Below are positions 18,424-64,000 of a stretch of DNA of 64,000 nucleotides, in pieces (position 1 is the stretch's first letter; every line of letters begins with the position of its first letter). The translations under genes and the position numbers were made by a program. The notes below the pieces were generated by a model. That model ran no database searches. It was not told the DNA's origin and saw only the letters and a program-made list of their open reading frames with translations. The stretch comes from a virus (Duplodnaviria; Heunggongvirae; Uroviricota; Caudoviricetes): the IMG/VR virus record IMGVR_UViG_2713896798_000008, one strand, 5' to 3'.

Positions 18424-18953
18424 GAATCCTCCCGGCCGGGATAATGTTGTGAGTCAGATAAGGGGCGGGCTGAAGTCCGGAAGTTACAGGACAATGACAG
18501 AAGGAAGACTACAGCCCGCAATACGAAAAAGGCCGCGCAGTTGCGCAGCCTTATAAACCCTGGTTAAAATCCACACGATAAAAATGACAATGCAAGTATC
18601 TCATGCTGTTGCCCGAACCTACTCGGGCTTTTTTTGCATGTAAAAAGGCTCCTGCGATGAGGAGCCTGGATATATGCCTAATCTCTGTATACAGCATGAT
18701 GCCGGGTGCCTCCCGGTGAATTCTGCAATGACCAGACAGAATCCGCAACTTGCCTATACAATACGCAACCAAACATCTGTCATTATGCCCCGCCGCCCAG
18801 GGGGATTCATCATGCAGGATTTTTTTAACAAACGCTCAGCATGTCAGGCAACAGTCAACTACCTGAATTGTGAGGCATTTAACATTTCACTGTCCGGTGT
18901 CTTTCCTGTAATAAAAAGCCCGCAAAAGAGAGTCAGGGCAGATAAGTGTGGTG

Positions 18954-19030
18954 TGGCGCGTTGTACTGGATTCGAACCAGTGACCGATTGCTTAGAAGGC
19001 AATTGCTCTGTCCGGCTGAGCTAACAACGC
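18954..19030 (-). tRNA. tRNA-Arg (anticodon UCU)
   Basis: Reverse complement folds as cloverleaf: GCGTTGT acceptor, anticodon loop CTTCTAA, T-loop GGTTCGAATCC, 3' GCCA. Confidence 0.85.
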
Positions 19031-19110
19031 AGAATACCGATAATGGACCGCCACCGGGGACTCCGAATCTCGCACAGGGTGACGTTCTTTCCTGATGAGC
19101 TAGTGGCGGT

Positions 19111-19186
19111 TGGTGGCCCTTGCTGGATTTGAACCAGCGACCTGGCGATTATGAGTCACTCGCTCTCACCACTGAGCTAAAGGGCC
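19111..19186 (-). tRNA. tRNA with CAU anticodon (Ile2/Met type, ileZ-like)
   Basis: Reverse complement GGCCCTTTAGCTCAGTGG...CTCATAA...GGTTCAAATCC...CCACCA; resembles E. coli ileX. Confidence 0.8.
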
Positions 19187-29703: not shown

Positions 29704-30348
29704 ATGGAAAGCCTTGGCATTAGGCTTAAGAAACTCAGAAAAGACAAAGGTCTGACCCAAGTTGAACTTGGCAAGCTTTCTGGCGTAACTGGGGTAACAA
29801 TAGGATACTGGGAGAAAGATCTAAACGAACCAGGTAGCAAAGCTCTTAGTAAATTAGCCCTAGCACTAGGCACTACTGAGTCCTATCTCCTGTATGGAGT
29901 ATCATCACCTGAATCATCCCTTGTGCAGAAAAATCCAGGTATCCAAATCCCATACCTTTCTTGGGGAGAAGCGATTTCTTTCCTAATATTAAAAGGAGAG
30001 AAAACTATGGGAAATGTCGACAGGATCACCACATTCTTTGATGTCAAGGAGGGAGATTTTGCCGTTTCAATGCCTGATGATACTATGCACAATCCATCAG
30101 GGTCCCCAAGCATTCCAGTTGGAGCCACAGTGATCATGAGGCCTAGCGAAAAATATAAAAATGGTAGCATCGTCGCAGTAATAGTCCCAGATCCACTCAC
30201 AAACGAACCATCCATGACTATAAAAAAATTAGTTATTGATGGAAAGCTCGTGTACTTAGCCCCCCTTAACCCACGCTATCAATCATCCTTACTTACACCG
30301 GAATGTAACATCGTTGCTGTAGCAAAAGGTGTTCAGTTCAGCCTCTAG
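29704..30348 (+). CDS. CI-like repressor (HTH_XRE N-domain plus S24 LexA-like peptidase C-domain)
   Basis: 214-aa ORF; HTH LTQVELGKLSGVTGVTIGYWE; C-terminal S24 fold with Ser/Lys dyad context. Confidence 0.85.
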   Translation: MESLGIRLKKLRKDKGLTQVELGKLSGVTGVTIGYWEKDLNEPGSKALSKLALALGTTESYLLYGVSSPESSLVQKNPGIQIPYLSWGEAISFLILKGEKTMGNVDRITTFFDVKEGDFAVSMPDDTMHNPSGSPSIPVGATVIMRPSEKYKNGSIVAVIVPDPLTNEPSMTIKKLVIDGKLVYLAPLNPRYQSSLLTPECNIVAVAKGVQFSL

Positions 30349-30400: not shown

Positions 30401-30448
30401 AAATATTTATATTCAACTTGACGGCAAAACTAAATATTCTTATATTCA
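30401..30448 (+). promoter_or_regulatory. pL-like promoter (TTGACG-17-TATATT) overlapped by two operator-like repeats AAATATT(C)TATATTCA
   Basis: -35 at 30418-30423, -10 at 30441-30446; repeat copies at 30401-30416 and 30432-30448, third copy at 29671-29687. Confidence 0.5.
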
Positions 30449-30620: not shown

Positions 30621-30773
30621 CATGGATACCATCGATCTTGGCAACAACGAATCTCTGGTGTGCGGCGTCTTCCCCAATCAGGACGGCACGTTTACCGCGA
30701 TGACGTATACCAAAAGTAAAACGTTTAAAACCGAAGCTGGCGCGCATCGCTGGTTAGCCAGAAACGCCAACTG
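30621..30773 (+). CDS. YdfA-like small protein
   Basis: 50-aa ORF MDTIDLGNNESLVCGVFPNQDGTF... with strong SD; first gene after pL. Confidence 0.45.
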
Positions 30774-30920
30774 ATTAGCGCCAGTAAAAACAGGTTTCCA
30801 CAGGTTAATGTACCCTGAAAAGTCATGGCATAACACGAAAGCGCACGGAGAGGTTTCTTTGCATATAAGTCTTGTCGTTAAATTTCTTCGACCGTGCGCT
30901 TCCGGTTGTGTAGCCAGTGC

Positions 30921-31163: not shown

Positions 31164-31352
31164 ATGGAAACGTCACTACCAAACGTTAATACGTCTGAAG
31201 GGTGTTTTGATATTGGTATTCTGCTCAGTAACCGGGAGTTTACTGAAGATGCCATTAAGATGAGAAAATATGAGCCTTATCTTCTCAATGATAATTCCAT
31301 ACTTTCCCGAATTGCTCTTCTTGAACTTGGTATTTTCGGAGAACGTCAATGA
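31164..31352 (+). CDS. dicB: Cell division inhibitor DicB-like
   Basis: 62-aa ORF METSLPNVNTSEGCFDIGILLSN.EFTEDAIKMRK, close to K-12 DicB. Confidence 0.7.
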   Translation: METSLPNVNTSEGCFDIGILLSNREFTEDAIKMRKYEPYLLNDNSILSRIALLELGIFGERQ

Positions 31353-31537
31353 CTTCAGCATTTGCACTGATGATGACGGTTTTTCTTATAACGGGTGAAT
31401 CACAGAATGTGATTACCGGAATTTATGCCAGTAAAGAATCCTGCCTCCAGGCAAGAGACGAGCAAAAAATTTCTGGTGAATGCCTCCCGGTAAAAAAAGT
31501 ATCGCTGTACCTGAATAACGAAACACCGGCTGGATAA
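31349..31537 (+). CDS. ydfD: YdfD-like small membrane protein
   Basis: 62-aa ORF with hydrophobic N-terminus, ATGA-coupled to dicB. Confidence 0.6.
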   Translation: MTSAFALMMTVFLITGESQNVITGIYASKESCLQARDEQKISGECLPVKKVSLYLNNETPAG

Positions 31538-31629: not shown

Positions 31630-34092
31630 ATGAGCACTGATAAAGAAGAATTTGCGCTATATTGCGAAGCAAAAAATGACAAAGTCAGAAAACGTCTGGG
31701 AATTAAAGGTGGTTTTTACTGGACTACAGCAAAAAAATTATCTGTTGCCATCTCCCGCTGCATTACCGCAATGGATGACAACGATTATGATGAAGACGAC
31801 TTTAAAAAACCCGTTCGCGTCCATTTACCCGTTGTGAATGACCTTCCACCTGAAGGCGTGTTTGATACCGAATTCTGCAACCGATACGAAAAAGGCGGGG
31901 AAGATGGCATTACAATGGTATTTATCGCGCCCTCTCCCTCCGTGCAGGAGAAACCAGCCAGTACTGACAATACCAACGTCAACGGCGAAGACATGACGGA
32001 GATTGAGGAGAATATGCTCCTGCCGGTTTCTGGTCAGGAGCTGCCCATTCGCTGGCTTGCGCAACACGGCAGCGAAAAACCAGTAACGCACGTTGCACGG
32101 GAAGAACTTCAGGCATTACATATAGCACGGGCGGAAGAACTGCCGGCTGTTACTGCCCTGGCCATTTCTCACAAAACAAAGCTGCTCGACCCGCTGGAGA
32201 TTCGCGACCTTCACAAACTGGTACGCGACACTGACAAAGTTTTCCCTAATCCCGGTAATTCAGACCTGGGACTGATAACTGCTTTTTTCGAGGCATACCT
32301 GGACGCTGACTACACTGATCGGGGTCTGCTGACAAAAGAGTGGATGAAAGGAAATCGTGTTTCGCGTATCACCCGTACGGCTTCCGGTGCAAATGCCGGT
32401 GGCGGGAACAAAACCGATCGCAATCCGAATTTAGTACACACCTTCGATACGCTGGATGTGGAGATTGCAGCAGCCACACTTCCGATGGATTTTAATATTT
32501 ATGAAATTCCGGGCAGCGTTTATCGTCGCGCAAAAGAAATCGTCCTGAAAAGAGAAAGTCCGTTCAAAGAATGGTCCGCAGCACTTCGCGCAACCCCGGG
32601 TATTCTGGACTATTCCCGCGCCGCTATTTTTGCACTTATCCGGAGCGCTCACCCTGAGTTTTATCACTACCCGGGACGCCTTCAGGGGTATATCAACGCC
32701 TACTTAACGGAGACTGATCACGAGAACCCCAGCAAGGAAACTCTCACTGCTGCACGACATACACCGGAAAAAGATATCCTGGAAGAAGTTAACCGCGAAC
32801 TGTCTGCTAAGCAGGAAACAGAAGAAGAAGAAAATGATGAAGAAAAACCGCAACCATCTTGCGCAATGGCAGATGAACAGGCAACGGCTGAAACAGTGGA
32901 ACCGGATGCAACTGAACATCATCAGGACACGCAGCCGCTGGATGCTCAGTCACAGGTAAATTCTGTTGATGCGAAATATCAGAAACTGCGGGCAGAACTC
33001 CATGAAGCCCGGAAAAACATTCCGCCCCAAAATCCTGTCGATGCAGACAAATTACTGGCTGCCTCTCGCGGAGAATTTGTTGAAGGGATTAGCGACCCGA
33101 ATGATCCGAAATGGATTAAGGGGATCCAGACCCGCGATTCTGTGTACCAGAACCAGCAAGAAACGGAACAGAACGACCAGAAAGCGGAACAAAACAGCCC
33201 AAATGCGTTACAAAACGAGCCAGAAACGAAACAGCCTGAACCAGTGGCGCAACAGGAAGTGGAAAAAGTCTGCACCGCCTGCGGTCAGACCGGCGGCGGC
33301 AACTGCCCTGATTGTGGCGCGGTGATGGGCGACGCAACATACCAGGAAATATTCGATGACAAGAACCTGGTTGAAGTTCAGGAAGACGATTCGGAGAAAA
33401 TGGAAGGCGCTGAACATCCACACAAGGAGAATGCTGGCAGCGCTCAGGACCACGCCAGCGATAGTGAAACTGGCGAGACGGCAGATCCCTTAATTACGGT
33501 GAACGGTCATCACGTTATCACATCCACCAGCAGGACGTGTGACCATCTAATGATCGACCTTGAAACCATGGGAAAAAATCCTGATGCCCCGATTATCTCA
33601 ATAGGTGCAATATTTTTCGATCCGCAAACCGGAGATATGGGACCGGAATTTAGTAAGACTATCGATCTGGAAACTGCTGGCGGAGTCATTGATCGGGACA
33701 CCATTAAATGGTGGCTTAAGCAATCACGCGAAGCGCAATCTGCCATTATGACCGATGAAATCCCGTTAGATGATGCACTGTTACAATTGCGGGAATTTAT
33801 CGACGAAAACTCCGGTGAATTTTTTGTTCAGGTCTGGGGAAATGGAGCCAACTTCGACAACACGATTTTGCGCCGTTCATACGAACGGCAGGGGATCCCC
33901 TGCCCGTGGCGTTACTACAACGATCGCGATGTGCGCACAATCGTTGAGCTGGGGAAAGCCATAGACTTCGATGCCAGAACGGCTATTCCATTCGAAGGTG
34001 AGCGCCATAATGCACTTGATGACGCCCGTTACCAGGCAAAATACGTTTCAGTTATCTGGCAAAAACTGATCCCGAGTCAGGCTGATTCTTAA
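31630..34092 (+). CDS. Exonuclease: RecE N-terminal-like region, zinc ribbon, C-terminal DEDDh (DnaQ-like) 3'-5' exonuclease domain
   Basis: 820-aa ORF; N-region resembles RecE non-catalytic part; [16 protein letters not shown] ribbon; C-terminal [21 protein letters not shown] motifs. Confidence 0.7.
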
Positions 34093-34164
34093 TGTTCAAC
34101 TGTCGCCGGTTGTGACTGGTATTCTGCAACCGGCGCTCGTCTGATGTAAGAGATAAAGAAAGCG

Positions 34165-34416
34165 ATGAGCGAAGTAATCATGATTGTCTCTCCCGGCAAA
34201 TGGGTATCCGAAGAGCAGTTAATTGCGCTGAAAGGAATAAAAAAAGGTACGTTAAAAAAGGCCCGGGAAAAATCGTTTATGGAAGGAAGGGAATATAAGC
34301 ATGTCGCTCATGACGGTATGCCATGGGATAACAGTCCATGCTTTTACAACCTGGAAGAAATTGATCGCTGGATTGAGCGCCAGGCATCTGCAAGACCAAG
34401 ACGTCATCTTGCTTGA
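34165..34416 (+). CDS. Excisionase-like protein
   Basis: 83-aa ORF immediately upstream of integrase; identical copy at 62434-62685. Confidence 0.6.
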   Translation: MSEVIMIVSPGKWVSEEQLIALKGIKKGTLKKAREKSFMEGREYKHVAHDGMPWDNSPCFYNLEEIDRWIERQASARPRRHLA

Positions 34417-34435
34417 CTAAAAGCAACACGAACCA

Positions 34436-35731
34436 ATGAGAGAAGCTGAAATGAAATATCCGACAGGCGTGGAAAACCATGGAGGGAAATTACGTATCTG
34501 GTTTGTTTATAAAGGTGTAAGAGTCCGGGAAAATCTTGGGGTTCCTGACACAGCAAAAAACAGGCGCATTGCAGGTGAGCTACGCGCCTCTGTTTGTTAC
34601 GCAATAAAAACTGGCGCTTTCGACTATGCAAAACAGTTTCCCGCCTCACACAATCTGGAAAAATTTGGTGAGGCCCGACAAGATTTAACCATAAAAGAAC
34701 TGGCTGAAAAATTTCTGGCACTGAAAGAAACTGAAGTCGCAAAAACGTCACTCAACACGTACCGTGCCGTCATCAAAAATATTCTGAGCATAATCGGTGA
34801 AAAAAATCTTGCATCATCGATTAATAAAGAAAAATTGCTGGCGGTACGTAAAGAGTTACTGACTGGATACCAGATCCCCAAAAGTAACTATATTGTTACA
34901 CAACCCGGGAGATCGGCTGTTACCGTAAATAATTACATGACAAATCTTTACGCCGTGTTCCAGTTTGGTGTTGATAACGGTTATCTGGCAGACAATCCAT
35001 TTAAGGGGATCTCACCATTAAAGGAGTCGAGAACCATCCCGGATCCACTTTCGCGGGAGGAGTTTATCCGCCTTATTGACGCGTGCAGAAATCAGCAAGC
35101 CAAAAATTTATGGTGTGTTTCCGTTTATACTGGGATTCGCCCTGGTGAACTCTGTGCGCTTGGATGGGAAGATATAGATCTGAAAAATGGAACAATGATA
35201 ATCAGAAGAAATCTGGCAAAAGACCGTTTTACAGTACCAAAAACACAGGCGGGAACCAATCGTGTGATTCACCTTATTAAGCCCGCAATCGACGCTCTCC
35301 GGAGTCAGATGGCACTAACGAGACTGAGCAAAGAGCATATCATCGATGTTCACCTCAGAGAATTCGGCAGAACAGAGAAACAAAAATGTACCTTTGTTTT
35401 TCAACCTGAAGTGTCAGCGAAAGTAAAAAATTATGGCGACCATTTTACCGTTGACTCAATAAGGCAGATGTGGGACGCAGCGGTAAAGCGTGCCGGAATC
35501 CGCCATCGCAAATCGTATCAGTCGAGACACACTTATGCCTGCTGGTCGTTAACAGCAGGAGCTAACCCGGCATTCATTGCAAACCAGATGGGCCATGCAG
35601 ATGCGCAAATGGTGTTTCAGGTGTACGGGAAATGGATGTCAGAAAATAATAATGCGCAGGTAACGCTGTTAAATACACAGTTAAGCGAGTTTGCCCCAAC
35701 CATGCCCCATAACGAAGCGATGAAAAGTTAA
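34436..35731 (+). CDS. Tyrosine integrase (lambda family)
   Basis: 431-aa ORF with catalytic R...HxxR...Y context (RHRKSYQSRHTYACW); about 95 percent identical to copy at 62705-64000. Confidence 0.9.
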   Translation: MREAEMKYPTGVENHGGKLRIWFVYKGVRVRENLGVPDTAKNRRIAGELRASVCYAIKTGAFDYAKQFPASHNLEKFGEARQDLTIKELAEKFLALKETEVAKTSLNTYRAVIKNILSIIGEKNLASSINKEKLLAVRKELLTGYQIPKSNYIVTQPGRSAVTVNNYMTNLYAVFQFGVDNGYLADNPFKGISPLKESRTIPDPLSREEFIRLIDACRNQQAKNLWCVSVYTGIRPGELCALGWEDIDLKNGTMIIRRNLAKDRFTVPKTQAGTNRVIHLIKPAIDALRSQMALTRLSKEHIIDVHLREFGRTEKQKCTFVFQPEVSAKVKNYGDHFTVDSIRQMWDAAVKRAGIRHRKSYQSRHTYACWSLTAGANPAFIANQMGHADAQMVFQVYGKWMSENNNAQVTLLNTQLSEFAPTMPHNEAMKS

Positions 35732-59784: not shown

Positions 59785-60141
59785 TTAAAAAATCAGAACG
59801 CCGTGCGGCCTCAACACCCGAAAGGCTTCTTTAAATCTCTGTCGCGAATCATCACGCCAGGCATCTTTATTCAGCCGTCCATATTTCTTTCCCATCCAGG
59901 CGTTATCACCAACACTCTCAAGATGCGGAGGGTCTAATACAACCATCGAAAAAGATGCGTCTGCAAATGATAATGCACGAAAATCTGCGATAATGTCAGG
60001 GCTGATAATCAAGCGTCTCCCATTGCGTAATGTGTATCCTTCTTTTCTGATATCGCTGAATATCGCCCGTTCGTCAGACTTATCGAACCAGAACATGCGG
60101 CTGCCACAGCACATATCAAGAATGGTTGCCGGTGCACTCAC
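59785..60141 (-). CDS. Short methyltransferase-like protein (possibly truncated)
   Basis: DMCCGSRMFWF (AdoMet motif I-like) and LDPPH (motif IV-like) in 118 aa. Confidence 0.45.
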   Translation of the reverse strand: MSAPATILDMCCGSRMFWFDKSDERAIFSDIRKEGYTLRNGRRLIISPDIIADFRALSFADASFSMVVLDPPHLESVGDNAWMGKKYGRLNKDAWRDDSRQRFKEAFRVLRPHGVLIF

Positions 60142-60404
60142 TGCGCCACGTCCTGAAAATTACCCTGATAGAAAGCCAGTATGCGCTGCATAACTTCGCT
60201 CTTCCGGCACTCGCGACAGATTATGTTTAGGCGACTGTCGTAGCGACGTATTTCTCCGTCAGGTGATGACCAGATAAGGTCCGGATCAACCACAGCAGGT
60301 TTCTTCACCTTTGCCCTCGAGAGTTTTTTGCGGGCGTTTTGCCAGTCCTTACGCGCCTGTTCAGAGGGGAATAACCCGTATCCGGAGCTTAAGTTGCACG
60401 CCAT
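60138..60404 (-). CDS. Hypothetical protein translationally coupled to MTase-like gene
   Basis: 88-aa ORF with ATGA overlap to downstream gene. Confidence 0.4.
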   Translation of the reverse strand: MACNLSSGYGLFPSEQARKDWQNARKKLSRAKVKKPAVVDPDLIWSSPDGEIRRYDSRLNIICRECRKSEVMQRILAFYQGNFQDVAQ

Positions 60405-60462
60405 TGGGTGGGTTAAGCATAAATGTATTCCTGGTGCTAAATGGCCCGAAATTCAGGCAGAG

Positions 60463-62361
60463 ATGCGCATCTGGAAAAAACGTCGCGAAGGTGAACGCAA
60501 GGAAACCGGAAAATACACGTCTGTTGTTGATCTCGCCCGCGCCAGAGCCAATCAACAGTACACTGAAAATTCAACAGGAAAAATCAGCCCGGTCATTGCT
60601 GCCATTCATCGCGAATACAAGCAGACATGGAAAACACTGGATGACGAACTGGCCTACGCTCTCTGGCCTAGTGATGTGGATGCCGGAAACATTGACGGCA
60701 GCATCCATCGCTGGGCAAAAAAAGAAGTTATCGACAACGACCGCGAAGACTGGAAGCGTATCTCGGCATCAATGCGCAAACAGCCTGATGCCCTTCGCTA
60801 CGACCGCCAAACTATTTTTGGCCTTGTCCGTGAGCGTCCGATCGACATTCACAAAGATCCCGTAGCACTGAACAAATATATCTGCGAATACCTGACGACA
60901 AAGGGCGTGTTTGAGAATGAAGAAACAGACCTGGGCACTGTTGATGTTCTCCAGTCATCAGAAACACAAACTGATGCAGTGGAAACTGAGGTATCTGATA
61001 TCCCAAAAAATGAAACCGCGCCGGAAGCTGAACCATCTGTAGAGCGTGAGGGGCCGTTCTATTTCCTCTTCGCAGATAAGGACGGAGAAAAATACGGTCG
61101 CGCAAACAAACTCTCTGGTCTGGATAAGGCACTGGCTGCTGGCGCCACTGAAATCACAAAAGAAGAATATTTTGCCCGAAAAAATGGCACATACACGGGC
61201 TTACCGCAAAATGTAGATACCGCTGAAGATTCAGAACAACCAGAGCCGATAAAAGTTACCGCTGACGAAGTAAACAAAATTATGCAGGCAGCCAATATCA
61301 GCCAGCCTGACGCCGATAAGTTGCTTGCTGCATCACGTGGTGAATTTGTTGAAGGGATTAGTGACCCGAATGATCCGAAATGGGTTAAGGGGCTCCAGAC
61401 CCGCGATTCTGTGAACCAGAACCAGCATGAATCGGAACGGAACTACCAAAAAGCGGAACAAAACAGTCCAAATGCGTTACAAAACGAGCCAGAAACGAAA
61501 CAGCCTGAACCAGTAGCGCAACAGGAAGTGGAAAAAGTCTGCACCGCCTGCGGTCAGACCGGCGGCGGCAACTGCCCTGATTGTGGCGCGGTGATGGGCG
61601 ACGCAACATACCAAGAAACATTCGATGAAGAGTATCAGGTTGAAGTTCAGGAAGATGATCCGGAGGAAATGGAAGGCGCTGAACATCCACACAAGGAGAA
61701 CACTGGCGGCAATCAGCATCACAATAGCGATAATGAAACTGGCGAGACGGCAGATCACCCAATTAAGGTGAACGGTCATCACGAAATCACATCCACCAGC
61801 AGGACGTGTGACCATCTAATGATCGACCTTGAAACCATGGGAAAAAATCCTGATGCCCCGATCATCTCAATAGGTGCAATATTTTTCGATCCGCAAACCG
61901 GAGATATGGGACCGGAATTTAGTAAGACTATCGATCTGGAAACTGCTGGCGGAGTCATTGATCGGGACACCATTAAATGGTGGCTTAAGCAATCACGCGA
62001 AGCGCAATCTGCCATTATGACCGATGAAATCCCGTTAGATGATGCACTGTTACAATTGCGAGAATTTATCGACGAAAACTCCGGTGAATTTTTTGTTCAG
62101 GTTTGGGGAAATGGAGCCAACTTCGACAACACGATTTTGCGCCGTTCATACGAACGGCAGGGGATCCCCTGCCCGTGGCGTTACTACAACGATCGCGATG
62201 TACGCACAATCGTTGAGCTGGGGAAAGCCATAGACTTCGATGCCAGAACGGCTATTCCATTCGAAGGTGAGCGCCATAATGCACTTGATGACGCCCGTTA
62301 CCAGGCAAAATACGTTTCAGTTATCTGGCAAAAACTGATCCCGAGTCAGGCTGATTCTTAA
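60463..62361 (+). CDS. Exonuclease: distinct N-terminal region plus zinc ribbon and DEDDh 3'-5' exonuclease C-domain shared with 31630-34092
   Basis: Start taken at Met after the minus-strand gene; C-terminal 340 aa nearly identical to prophage A copy. Confidence 0.65.
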   Translation: MRIWKKRREGERKETGKYTSVVDLARARANQQYTENSTGKISPVIAAIHREYKQTWKTLDDELAYALWPSDVDAGNIDGSIHRWAKKEVIDNDREDWKRISASMRKQPDALRYDRQTIFGLVRERPIDIHKDPVALNKYICEYLTTKGVFENEETDLGTVDVLQSSETQTDAVETEVSDIPKNETAPEAEPSVEREGPFYFLFADKDGEKYGRANKLSGLDKALAAGATEITKEEYFARKNGTYTGLPQNVDTAEDSEQPEPIKVTADEVNKIMQAANISQPDADKLLAASRGEFVEGISDPNDPKWVKGLQTRDSVNQNQHESERNYQKAEQNSPNALQNEPETKQPEPVAQQEVEKVCTACGQTGGGNCPDCGAVMGDATYQETFDEEYQVEVQEDDPEEMEGAEHPHKENTGGNQHHNSDNETGETADHPIKVNGHHEITSTSRTCDHLMIDLETMGKNPDAPIISIGAIFFDPQTGDMGPEFSKTIDLETAGGVIDRDTIKWWLKQSREAQSAIMTDEIPLDDALLQLREFIDENSGEFFVQVWGNGANFDNTILRRSYERQGIPCPWRYYNDRDVRTIVELGKAIDFDARTAIPFEGERHNALDDARYQAKYVSVIWQKLIPSQADS

Positions 62362-62433
62362 TGTTCAACTGTCGCCGGTTGTGACTGGTATTCTGCAACC
62401 GGCGCTCGTCTGATGTAAGAGATAAAGAAATCG

Positions 62434-62685
62434 ATGAGCGAAGTAATCATGATTGTCTCTCCCGGCAAATGGGTATCCGAAGAGCAGTTAATTGCGCTGA
62501 AAGGAATAAAAAAAGGTACGTTAAAAAAGGCCCGGGAAAAATCGTTTATGGAAGGAAGGGAATATAAGCATGTCGCTCATGACGGTATGCCATGGGATAA
62601 CAGTCCATGCTTTTACAACCTGGAAGAAATTGATCGCTGGATTGAGCGCCAGGCATCAGCGAGACCAAGACGTCATCTTACTTGA
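62434..62685 (+). CDS. Excisionase-like protein
   Basis: 83-aa ORF, one substitution versus 34165-34416. Confidence 0.6.
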   Translation: MSEVIMIVSPGKWVSEEQLIALKGIKKGTLKKAREKSFMEGREYKHVAHDGMPWDNSPCFYNLEEIDRWIERQASARPRRHLT

Positions 62686-62704
62686 CTAAAAGCCACACTA
62701 ACTA

Positions 62705-64000
62705 ATGAGAGAAGTTGAAATGAAATATCCGACAGGCGTGGAAAACCATGGAGGGAAATTACGTATCTGGTTTGTTTATAAAGACATAAGAGTCAGGGAA
62801 AATCTGGGGGTTCCTGACACAGCAAAAAACAGGCGCGTTGCAGGTGAACTACGCTCCTCTGTTTGTTACGCAATAAAAACTGGTGTTTTCGACTATGCAA
62901 AACAGTTTCCCTCCTCACGCAATCTGGAAAAATTTGGTGAGGCCCGACAAGATTTAACCATAAAAGAACTGGCTGAAAAATTTCTGGCACTGAAAGAAAC
63001 TGAAGTCGCCAAAACATCACTCAACACATACCGTGCCGTCATCAAAAATATCCTGAGCATAATCGGTGAAAAAAATCTTGCCTCATCGATTAATAAAGAA
63101 AAATTACTGGAGGTTCGTAAAGAGTTACTGACTGGATACCAGATCCCCAAAAGTAACTATATTGTTACACAACCAGGGAGATCGGCTGTAACTGTAAATA
63201 ATTACATGACAAATCTTAACGCCGTGTTCCAGTTTGGTGTTGATAACGGTTACCTGGCAGATAATCCGTTTAAGGGGATCTCGCCATTAAAGGAATCAAG
63301 AACCATTCCGGATCCTCTTTCGCGGGAAGAATTTATCCGTCTTATCGATGCGTGCAGAAATCAGCAAGCAAAAAATTTATGGTGTGTTTCTGTTTATACT
63401 GGAGTTCGCCCTGGTGAGCTGTGTGCACTTGGATGGGAGGACATAGATCTGAAAAATGGAACAATGATGATCAGGAGAAATTTAGCAAAAGACCGTTTCA
63501 CGGTACCAAAAACACAGGCGGGAACCAATCGGGTCATTCATCTTATTAAGCCAGCAATCGACGCTCTCCGGAGTCAGATGACATTAACGAGACTGAGCAA
63601 AGAGCATATCATTGATGTTCACCTCAGAGAGTATGGCAGAACAGAAAAACAAAAATGCACCTTTGTTTTTCAACCTGAAGTGTCAGCGAGAGTAAAAAAT
63701 TATGGTGACCATTTTACCGTTGACTCAATAAGGCAGATGTGGGACGCAGCGATAAAACGTGCCGGACTCCGCCATCGAAAATCATATCAGTCGAGACATA
63801 CTTATGCCTGCTGGTCGCTGACAGCTGGTGCTAACCCGGCATTTATAGCAAACCAGATGGGCCATGCAGATGCGCAAATGGTATTTCAGGTATACGGAAA
63901 ATGGATGTCTGAAAACAATAATGCACAGGTAGCTTTGTTAAATACACAGTTAAGCGAGTTTGCCCCAACCATGCCCCATAACGAAGCAATGAAAAATTAA
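62705..64000 (+). CDS. Tyrosine integrase (lambda family), second copy
   Basis: 431-aa ORF ending with TAA at window end; about 95 percent identical to 34436-35731. Confidence 0.9.
   Translation: MREVEMKYPTGVENHGGKLRIWFVYKDIRVRENLGVPDTAKNRRVAGELRSSVCYAIKTGVFDYAKQFPSSRNLEKFGEARQDLTIKELAEKFLALKETEVAKTSLNTYRAVIKNILSIIGEKNLASSINKEKLLEVRKELLTGYQIPKSNYIVTQPGRSAVTVNNYMTNLNAVFQFGVDNGYLADNPFKGISPLKESRTIPDPLSREEFIRLIDACRNQQAKNLWCVSVYTGVRPGELCALGWEDIDLKNGTMMIRRNLAKDRFTVPKTQAGTNRVIHLIKPAIDALRSQMTLTRLSKEHIIDVHLREYGRTEKQKCTFVFQPEVSARVKNYGDHFTVDSIRQMWDAAIKRAGLRHRKSYQSRHTYACWSLTAGANPAFIANQMGHADAQMVFQVYGKWMSENNNAQVALLNTQLSEFAPTMPHNEAMKN

Follow-up and report, generated by a model that had tools for sequence, protein, structure and literature searches.

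A RecE-type protein with a predicted DexA-like DEDDh exonuclease domain, encoded in a lambdoid prophage without a detected annealase partner

Background

RecE, encoded by the Rac prophage of Escherichia coli K-12, carries its 5'-3' nuclease of the PD-(D/E)XK type in residues 564-866, and the part in front of this domain improves linear-linear recombination and recombineering (2023 review, PMC11611040). The present work concerns a gene, referred to as gene A (31630-34092, + strand), which lies in a 64,000-nucleotide stretch of Caudoviricetes DNA (IMG/VR record IMGVR_UViG_2713896798_000008), the whole of which is called the window below. The product of gene A follows RecE up to the nuclease domain and then continues, as predicted here, into an exonuclease domain of another superfamily, the DEDDh type of DnaQ-like enzymes.

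The closest solved relative of this second domain is DexA of the virulent phage T4, a stand-alone protein of 227 amino acids (aa) with extra loops and helices. The DexA family has a further described member in E. coli, the short stand-alone protein EcD. Two other single-domain relatives, of 190 and 199 aa, are encoded in the E. coli temperate phages PhiR55_1 and PhiR46_1, respectively; such stand-alone genes are situated in the early region, often near int, of phages without a Rec module.

A survey of 325 lambdoid phages (Zheng, Casjens, Davidson, Amundsen and Smith 2025, PMC12315714) described 68 phages among 314 enterobacterial ones that lack a Rec module and are rich in correctly oriented Chi sites, with at least 8 Chi on the top strand, at most 6 on the bottom strand and clustering on the right; growth of the type phage of this class is aided by RecBCD. 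The same survey reported DnaQ-type nuclease genes occurring sporadically near int, outside recognisable Rec modules, as well as 'RecE-2' proteins without a nuclease domain.

Results

Domain organisation of the gene A product

Gene A is an intact, uninterrupted open reading frame of 820 codons with a GAGG ribosome-binding site 8-9 nt 5' of its ATG, and its RefSeq counterpart, WP_016241292.1, bears the product name 'exonuclease'. The first domain of the protein, D1 (residues 57-189, 31798-32196), was assigned to the Pfam family Exonuc_VIII, the RecE N-terminal family, with an E value of 3.4e-34. Comparison by blastp aligned residues 60-622 with residues 52-591 of K-12 Rac RecE at 62 % identity, including long near-identical stretches. 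Within this region there is a conserved helical domain, D2 (residues ~270-385, 32437-32784), supported by tblastn, blastp and AlphaFold2 and found by tblastn to be common to gene A, Rac RecE, proteins of the type encoded by phage Tritos and a nuclease-less Stenotrophomonas phage protein. It is followed by a conserved island (residues 466-500, 33025-33129) in an acidic, probably disordered linker, which was recognised in a three-way alignment and includes the DPNDPKW motif common to gene A and RecE, and by a zinc ribbon of the form CxxC-x7-CxxC (residues 548-562, 33271-33315; C548, C551, C559 and C562). All these features, and those of the following paragraph, are encoded on the + strand.

The similarity to RecE stops at residue 622 (nt 33495), just ahead of the start of the RecE nuclease domain. 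This point lies in an acidic linker (residues 563-634, 33316-33531) that blastp, the ratio of non-synonymous to synonymous substitution rates (dN/dS) and a low predicted local distance difference test score (pLDDT) indicate as the site of the module junction. An earlier interpretation of the DNA, made without database searches (the sequence-only reading), had noted a zinc ribbon ahead of the DEDDh domain; the ribbon exists, but since the RecE homology, ribbon included, runs to residue 622, it has to be assigned to the RecE part, and Rac RecE also possesses it.

No Pfam match to a PD-(D/E)XK nuclease domain was obtained in gene A, and the RecE nuclease domain used as a query found nothing in the window. 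The NCBIfam model of exodeoxyribonuclease VIII was matched at positions 1-603 of 877 only, with a score of 999 bits, below the cut-off of 1269. Among the characteristics of the RecE family gene A thus retains the Exonuc_VIII N-region, whereas the PD-(D/E)XK domain and an adjacent RecT are missing. Judging by these alignments, it is only the catalytic domain that is exchanged relative to RecE, at a putative junction in the acidic linker past the zinc ribbon. Gene A and Rac recE have Exonuc_VIII, D2, the island and the zinc ribbon in common and occupy the same slot of the early-left operon, just 5' of xis and int; gene A differs in having a DEDDh domain, of the expected opposite polarity, in place of RecE residues 564-866.

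The proposal that gene A is a mosaic of a RecE N-region and a DnaQ-type DEDDh exonuclease lacking RecE's own nuclease was therefore borne out by Pfam, by the blastp alignment and by the five catalytic residues described below, and its identity as a RecE-type N-region fused to a DexA-type DEDDh domain is regarded as highly probable. It follows that the label 'exodeoxyribonuclease VIII', given to such genes in many records, is a mis-annotation, the RecE nuclease being missing.

The C-terminal exonuclease domain

Residues 639-810 (33544-34059) were matched to the Pfam family Rv2179c-like (PF16473) with an E value of 1.5e-67, the cut-off of the family being 27 bits. The motifs DLET at 643, NGANFD at 738 and HNALDD at 793 supply the residues expected of the superfamily: D643 and E645 of MIDLETMG form the D-x-E of Exo I and align with D7 and E9 of DexA, D743 of NGANFD is the Exo II aspartate and aligns with D119, while H793 and D798 of HNALDD form the H-x4-D of Exo III, which defines the 'h' subtype, and align with H186 and D191. 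All five DEDDh residues thus correspond to those of DexA, and they are nearly invariant across 122 homologues.

A phmmer search of PDB sequences, in which matches at E <= 0.01 were considered, returned 8KEL and 8KEN, both T4 DexA, and nothing else (E 1.7e-6 against 8kel); no chain of Rv2179c was among the matches, while DexA was. The AlphaFold2 model of residues 540-820, built on a 122-row alignment, had pLDDT values above 90 over the exonuclease domain and low ones in the acidic linker. When this domain was compared with PDB structures by Foldseek, DexA chains came first (E 3e-10, TM-score 0.62-0.70 on target), followed by RNase T, the DnaQ domain of a Cas2 fusion, oligoribonucleases and Cap18; there were 108 PDB matches at E <= 0.001, and the top 50 listed were entries of DEDD-family exonucleases, so that the domain has the RNase H-like alpha/beta fold of the superfamily. 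The domain search and structure prediction that had been named as the test of the DnaQ-type assignment hence gave a positive answer. Sequence motifs and model together clearly identify the C-terminal part of gene A as a predicted DnaQ-like DEDDh exonuclease domain with T4 DexA as its closest solved relative. By analogy with such enzymes the product would remove nucleotides in the 3'-5' direction, most probably from DNA and in a metal-dependent manner.

The resemblance to DexA has its limits. The identity between the two domains is only ~22-28 %, and the domain of gene A, in contrast to the free-standing DexA, is tethered to a 630-aa RecE-type region. DexA residues W152 and D169, where the loop alignment is uncertain, are replaced by Y and A in gene A according to two alignments, and S87 is replaced by P. 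The PhiR55_1 and PhiR46_1 proteins are closer in sequence, 54-59 % identical to the domain of gene A and matched to the same Pfam family at E 1e-67 to 3e-75, but they consist of this domain alone, whereas in gene A it is the C-terminus of a multi-domain RecE-type protein. Rv2179c of Mycobacterium tuberculosis shares the Pfam family PF16473 with gene A and differs in being, per the Pfam description, an exoribonuclease.

The domain family is common in phages, with 1293 phage records found by tblastn, ranging from T4-type dexA (28 % identity) to Vibrio, Pseudomonas, Rhodobacter and Bacillus phages; in phage RcDora a stand-alone homologue adjoins the DNA polymerase gene.

Absence of an annealase partner

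The six-frame translation of the whole window was searched by tblastn and phmmer with four RecT proteins, lambda Bet, Exo and Gam, the YqaJ nuclease and the RecE nuclease domain, and no match was found; the same queries recovered their targets in control loci. No annealase is present in the RefSeq annotation of the window or among the Pfam assignments of the neighbouring genes. The small genes upstream of gene A were considered as a hiding place for an annealase and ruled out, being identified by Pfam as DUF1391, DicB and DUF1482. In contrast to Rac, neither recT nor ralR nor rcbA was found downstream of gene A.

The same picture emerged from related loci. Eight other contigs encoding an identical gene A protein have the same neighbours and no annealase. 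The arrangement dicB, ydfD, exo, xis, int recurs in phages 640R1, Tritos, mEp460 and PPompW, again with no annealase there, and the complete 46-kb genome of Tritos contained no RecT, Bet, Exo or Gam by annotation and tblastn. RecT directly follows RecE with a PD-(D/E)XK domain in every case examined (Rac, Gifsy-2, Klebsiella ST16-OXA48phi5.1, mEp237, Aeromonas pAEv1818 and 673R7); the domain, of the Pfam DUF3799 type, was confirmed in the Gifsy-2, Klebsiella, mEp237 and Aeromonas proteins. The statement of the sequence-only reading that no RecT/Bet-like annealase adjoins the gene agrees with the window scans, the annotation, the eight contigs, Tritos and mEp460. Its suggestion that a classical recombination pair is not formed also stands, no annealase having been found here or in the relatives, and a pairing of the gene A exonuclease with an annealase is improbable.

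Genes around gene A follow the order cI, DUF1391, dicB, DUF1482, exonuclease, xis, int, all on the + strand. A CI-type repressor with a helix-turn-helix and an S24 peptidase domain is encoded at 29704-30348, and 3' of it a PL-like promoter with 10 of 12 consensus matches was located by consensus scan at 30418-30446. DUF1391 (30622-30774), dicB (31164-31352) and a DUF1482/ydfD-like gene (31349-31537), all identified by Pfam and annotation, precede gene A, and the excisionase gene xis (34165-34416) and the integrase gene int (34436-35731) lie downstream. The consensus scan gave no promoter-like site directly 5' of gene A, and the PL-like site is presumed to be the start of an early-left operon ending in exo-xis-int. 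DicF RNA was not detected at the Rfam gathering score in the prophage carrying gene A (prophage A). The gene beside dicB in strain UTI89 bears the name 'exoO'. A published transcriptome of enterohaemorrhagic E. coli (EHEC) treated with ciprofloxacin contained nothing on gene A.

The RecE-type front part and its nuclease partners

The diversity of proteins with the RecE-type front part was sampled from representatives of 50%-identity clusters supplemented with distant queries, a search with the full-length protein having given near-identical E. coli sequences only. Residues 1-400 used as a query against 1.84 billion cluster representatives matched 221 clusters only, so the RecE-type front part constitutes a narrow family. 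Among the 83 long representatives (at least 450 aa) a PD-(D/E)XK domain was present in 26 and a DEDDh domain in 14, always at the C-terminus (14/14); the remaining 43, some of which may be truncated by contig ends, had neither, and Pfam added to them two RecT fusions and no other nuclease. All catalytic residues were kept in 12 of the 14 RecE-N::DEDDh representatives. One of these proteins, P0155 (752 aa), has Lys and Ala at the positions of DexA E9 and D119 and is probably inactive.

One RecT fusion, P0146 (703 aa), joins the RecE N-region straight to RecT (Pfam RecT, E 1e-42), as would be expected if the nuclease domain had been deleted between recE and recT. In phage vB_EcoS-683R6 (ON470595, 3854-6519) a Rac-type recE is present as an N-terminal open reading frame of 555 aa and a PD-(D/E)XK open reading frame of 332 aa, followed by recT; the split is due to a frameshift, or else scaffold and nuclease are naturally separate there. 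The Stx phage POCJ13 of Shigella (KJ603229, 4001-7810) encodes a 'RecT' 94 % identical to lambda Bet and a 'putative enzyme' 95 % identical to lambda Exo, with a RecE-type protein of 682 aa just upstream and lambda-type Exo, Bet and Gam beside it. The POCJ13 protein shares the Exonuc_VIII N-region with gene A and is without any nuclease, whereas gene A has one; hence the N-region exists apart from the PD-(D/E)XK nuclease. Because it is found with several partners (PD-(D/E)XK, DEDDh, RecT, or none beside Exo-Bet), the front part of RecE is a separable module.

Structure prediction was less informative for this part than for the exonuclease domain. The AlphaFold2 model of the N-region, built on a 28-row alignment, had a mean pLDDT of 50 and was usable only at residues 1-60 and 270-360, the latter belonging to D2 and reaching ~67-84, while D1 was modelled with low confidence. 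Foldseek of this model against PDB gave nothing below E = 2, and a profile of 57 N-region sequences run against PDB sequences retrieved nothing but low-complexity noise and 3H4R, the nuclease domain of RecE.

Chi sites and host recombination

A Chi site, GCTGGTGG, lies inside gene A at 33524-33531 (- strand), on the late-gene sense strand, which is the strand 'active' for a lambdoid phage; it is repeated at the homologous position (61793-61800, - strand) of a second, truncated copy of the gene described below as copy B. The window as a whole contains 16 Chi sites, compared with ~2 expected from shuffled sequences. Within the window, prophage A has 7 Chi on the late-gene sense strand versus 2 on the other, and one more top-strand Chi is situated near the far prophage end, outside the window, in a closely related RefSeq genome. 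Tritos has 9 Chi on the top and 2 on the bottom strand, 8 of the 9 falling in the right 42 % of the genome.

The early-left operons of prophage A and Tritos contain no annealase, anti-RecBCD function, canonical Rec nuclease or single-stranded DNA-binding protein, the last judged by annotation only and not searched for separately. With regard to the LLS functional type 'no Rec module, Chi-rich', Tritos falls within the Chi limits of the survey cited above and prophage A lies on their border or just inside. The phages carrying gene A thus fit the published Chi-rich class without a Rec module, and the exonuclease of gene A would not count as a Rec-module gene as defined there (PMC12315714). The lack of an annealase and Gam together with the richness in Chi suggests that recombination is probably supplied by host RecBCD/RecA.

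Distribution

Of 5426 complete E. coli genomes, 1275 contain gene A at full length and 4745 give at least a partial match. It had already been recorded, with both Pfam domains, in a large protein collection under the names 'exonuclease' or '3'-5' exoribonuclease', and PHROGs 607, 2082 and 20376 cover its family. The combination is by no means a local rarity: the family is large and catalogued in PHROGs and RefSeq, and DnaQ-type genes by int have been in print since 2025 (PMC12315714). Gene A is a common, catalogued variant with both halves from known families and not a new kind of system, so the surprise for a specialist is modest.

Copy B and the repeated block

The second copy had been taken for an intact gene starting at 60463 with an N-terminal part unrelated to gene A. 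Neither point was upheld. Copy B (60378-62361, + strand) is a 5'-truncated pseudogene of the 823-aa variant that is present at full length in phages Tritos and mEp460, as judged by blastn, RefSeq and the junction sequence. It is 99 % identical in DNA to the 823-aa gene of Tritos and starts abruptly at window position 60378, corresponding to Tritos codon ~163, so that ~163 N-terminal codons, the start codon and the operon are missing; the ATG at 60463 encodes an internal Met, and RefSeq records a pseudogene 'missing N-terminus'. These facts rule out copy B as a functional paralogue.

The middle part of the copy is homologous to RecE, residues 55-432 matching positions 271-600 of the exonuclease VIII model (E 4.6e-84), and residues 245-371 of the Tritos protein are 35 % identical to residues 270-383 of gene A by blastp. 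Detectable similarity to RecE or a Pfam family is lacking solely in the initial ~245 aa of the Tritos-type protein. Two sister architectures can be recognised by sequence comparison, with D2, linker, island, zinc ribbon, second linker and DEDDh domain in common and different first domains.

Alignment of the two copies gave 94.5 % DNA identity between 33040-35731 and 61309-64000, a block spanning codons 471-820 of gene A, xis and int; the near identity of the C-termini claimed earlier was correct, its extent being 350 aa instead of 340 aa and the DNA block continuing through xis and int. The DEDDh domain of copy B (61813-62328, + strand) is identical in protein sequence to that of gene A: over 186 codons of the exonuclease domain there were 4 synonymous and 0 non-synonymous changes. 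The stretch around the zinc ribbon (residues 547-570) showed zero nucleotide differences, the island region (residues 471-546) had a dN/dS of 0.10 and the acidic linker (residues 571-634) a relaxed dN/dS of 0.64. The exonuclease domain is under purifying selection, and copy B is what remains of the sister variant, truncated and no longer functional, in a decayed Qin-type prophage.

Discussion

Proposed role of gene A

The gene A protein is proposed to be built on the RecE scaffold, with D1, D2, the acidic linker with its island and the zinc ribbon, in which a DEDDh domain of the DexA family would have taken the place of the C-terminal PD-(D/E)XK 5'-3' nuclease of RecE and, with it, of recT. 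It would be made only after induction or infection, from a repressor-controlled PL-type operon, and could act as an accessory enzyme that trims the DNA of phage or host at 3' ends or flaps, recombination being left to host RecBCD/RecA; the front part would contribute the same targeting or assembly function, whatever it is, as in RecE. We lean, if only slightly, towards this overall reading of gene A as a RecE-scaffold, DexA-type 3'-5' DNA end-trimming exonuclease active early after induction and without an annealase partner. The end-trimming role as such is put forward more tentatively.

Several points weigh against this proposal. The literature searched yielded no biochemical or genetic results for the gene A protein or for any RecE-N::DEDDh fusion, and the front part gave a poor model (pLDDT 50), matched no known fold and has no known function (PMC11611040). 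The Pfam family of the C-terminal domain is named after an exoribonuclease, and the substrate might be RNA. Host 3'-5' DNA exonucleases usually inhibit recombination (PMC12315714), for which reason a pro-recombination role is not obvious. A different role is suggested by EcD, a nuclease of E. coli homologous to DexA, which defends the cell against T4 (PMC12153337). Expression of gene A from PL, finally, is deduced from the consensus scan and from analogy with lambda, Rac and Qin, and may be taken as probable at most.

The relation of EcD to gene A leads to the first alternative, in which the latter would encode a nuclease of the HREX type, used as an inter-phage weapon or in defence. It would spare unmodified DNA and degrade the 5-hydroxymethylcytosine (5hmC)-type DNA of superinfecting T-even phages, to the benefit of the lysogen or the induced cell. 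Kang et al. (2025, PMC12153337) found that EcD leaves unmodified double-stranded DNA untouched but degrades T4 DNA and confers protection against T4; it belongs like gene A to E. coli and to the DexA family, and DexA is the closest solved relative of the gene A domain. Escherichia accounted for 38 % of the 3196 bacterial DexA homologues counted in the same paper, which makes no mention of prophages (PMC12153337). Many of these are probably prophage genes; prophage early genes such as gene A may explain many of the 'bacterial DexA homologues' proposed as anti-T4 defence.

EcD, of which the termini encoded by the cloning primers were available here, is nevertheless a different, short protein starting with MIDTET. 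It has Ala at the position of D90 and keeps the W and D reported to read 5hmC, whereas gene A retains Asp in the D90 column, a tetramer contact whose loss defines the EcD-like 'dimer only' state, and lacks both readers: W152 and D169 are Tyr and Ala, and the D169 position is non-acidic in all RecE-N fusions. Gene A moreover belongs to an early operon under repressor control, and since no promoter of its own was detected, it should be silent in the lysogen. PADLOC gave no hit for gene A and, for the Tritos protein, a weak generic match to a Cas-associated DEDDh model (E ~2e-5), which was rejected as evidence of membership in a defence system. A defence function of gene A is considered rather unlikely.

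A related proposal concerns the front part itself. The RecE N-region may be a targeting or assembly scaffold usable with any nuclease, having a role independent of an annealase or, alternatively, serving in an attack on competing phage DNA at induction. This suggestion is speculative and judged unlikely. If true, the RecE scaffold would in either role be put to a new use that needs no annealase, and should gene A prove to be an active 3'-5' DNA exonuclease, it would constitute a natural 'nuclease-swap' experiment on the role of the 560-600-residue N-region of RecE. The end-trimming proposal in turn has a bearing on how roughly one-fifth of lambdoid phages, those without a recombination module, handle DNA ends while depending on Chi and host RecBCD.

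An exonuclease directed at RNA, trimming the 3' ends of RNA or oligoribonucleotides, is suggested by the Pfam name (Rv2179c-like 3'-5' exoribonuclease), by the product name '3'-5' exoribonuclease' in some RefSeq entries and by RNase T, oligoribonuclease and ERI-type RNases among the structural neighbours. The best matches in both sequence and structure, however, are to the DNA exonuclease DexA and not to Rv2179c, the DEDDh domain takes the place of a DNA nuclease on a DNA-recombination scaffold, and the RcDora homologue lies beside a DNA polymerase gene; an RNA substrate is accordingly thought improbable.

Even less probable is the scavenging of host DNA, in which the gene A product, in the manner of T4 DexA, would break down fragments of host DNA into nucleotides while the phage grows lytically. 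Membership of the DexA family and an early position of the gene speak for it, and host DNA scavenging is among the documented roles of DexA (PMC12153337). The conserved 630-aa RecE-type front part would be left unexplained, and the operon contains no partner endonuclease. No temperate lambdoid phage is known to break down the chromosome of its host.

That gene A is after all half of a classical pair, its annealase having escaped recognition elsewhere in the phage or in the N-region, has in its favour the N-region without known function or fold and the two RecE-N representatives fused to RecT domains. No annealase-like sequence was found in the window, in Tritos or in the RefSeq annotation, a 3'-5' exonuclease would be expected from DEDDh polarity to leave 5' tails and not the 3' tails of known pairs, and the phages in question are Chi-rich like phages using RecBCD instead, so this possibility is very improbable.

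Least credible is a non-functional leftover, that is an accidental recE/DexA-like recombinant carried along by prophages: lambdoid prophages are highly mosaic, copy B is decayed and P0155 has lost two catalytic residues, but gene A is intact in 1275 complete genomes, its domain is under purifying selection, the gene is also intact in the complete deposited genomes of Tritos and mEp460, and fusions with the domain always at the C-terminus form 14 separate 50%-identity clusters.

Other features of the window

The near-identical RefSeq match to the window is the genome of E. coli SCPM-O-B-9504 (NZ_CP144930.1). A 777-bp IS1 insertion and an IS3 insertion of that genome are missing from the left ~29 kb of the window, which hence derives from a genome very closely related to it without being identical. 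In the late-regulatory region of prophage A (18576-19186) Rfam identified the small RNAs AgvB (anti-GcvB) and STnc100, accompanied by two tRNA genes, as is typical of EHEC-type lambdoid prophages.

The region ~36000-64000 is a remnant of a Qin-type prophage (ydfK, pinQ, tfaQ, cspB/F/I, relBE, hokD, essD) in tandem with prophage A and split up by IS1, an ISNCY fragment and two IS66-family elements; phage Tritos (OV696610) resembles this prophage type in its intact state. At 59785-60404 (- strand) a gene for a class I S-adenosylmethionine-dependent methyltransferase and an oppositely oriented DUF977 fragment abut copy B back-to-back, and the contact between copy B and DUF977 marks a deletion or inversion junction at ~60378. 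Copy B is followed by the second xis (62434-62685, + strand) and the second int (62705-64000, + strand). The two xis genes differ at 3 of 252 nt and the two int genes at 90 nt (dN/dS 0.06), and the presence of related integrases ~28 kb apart gives scope for recombination between the tandem prophages.

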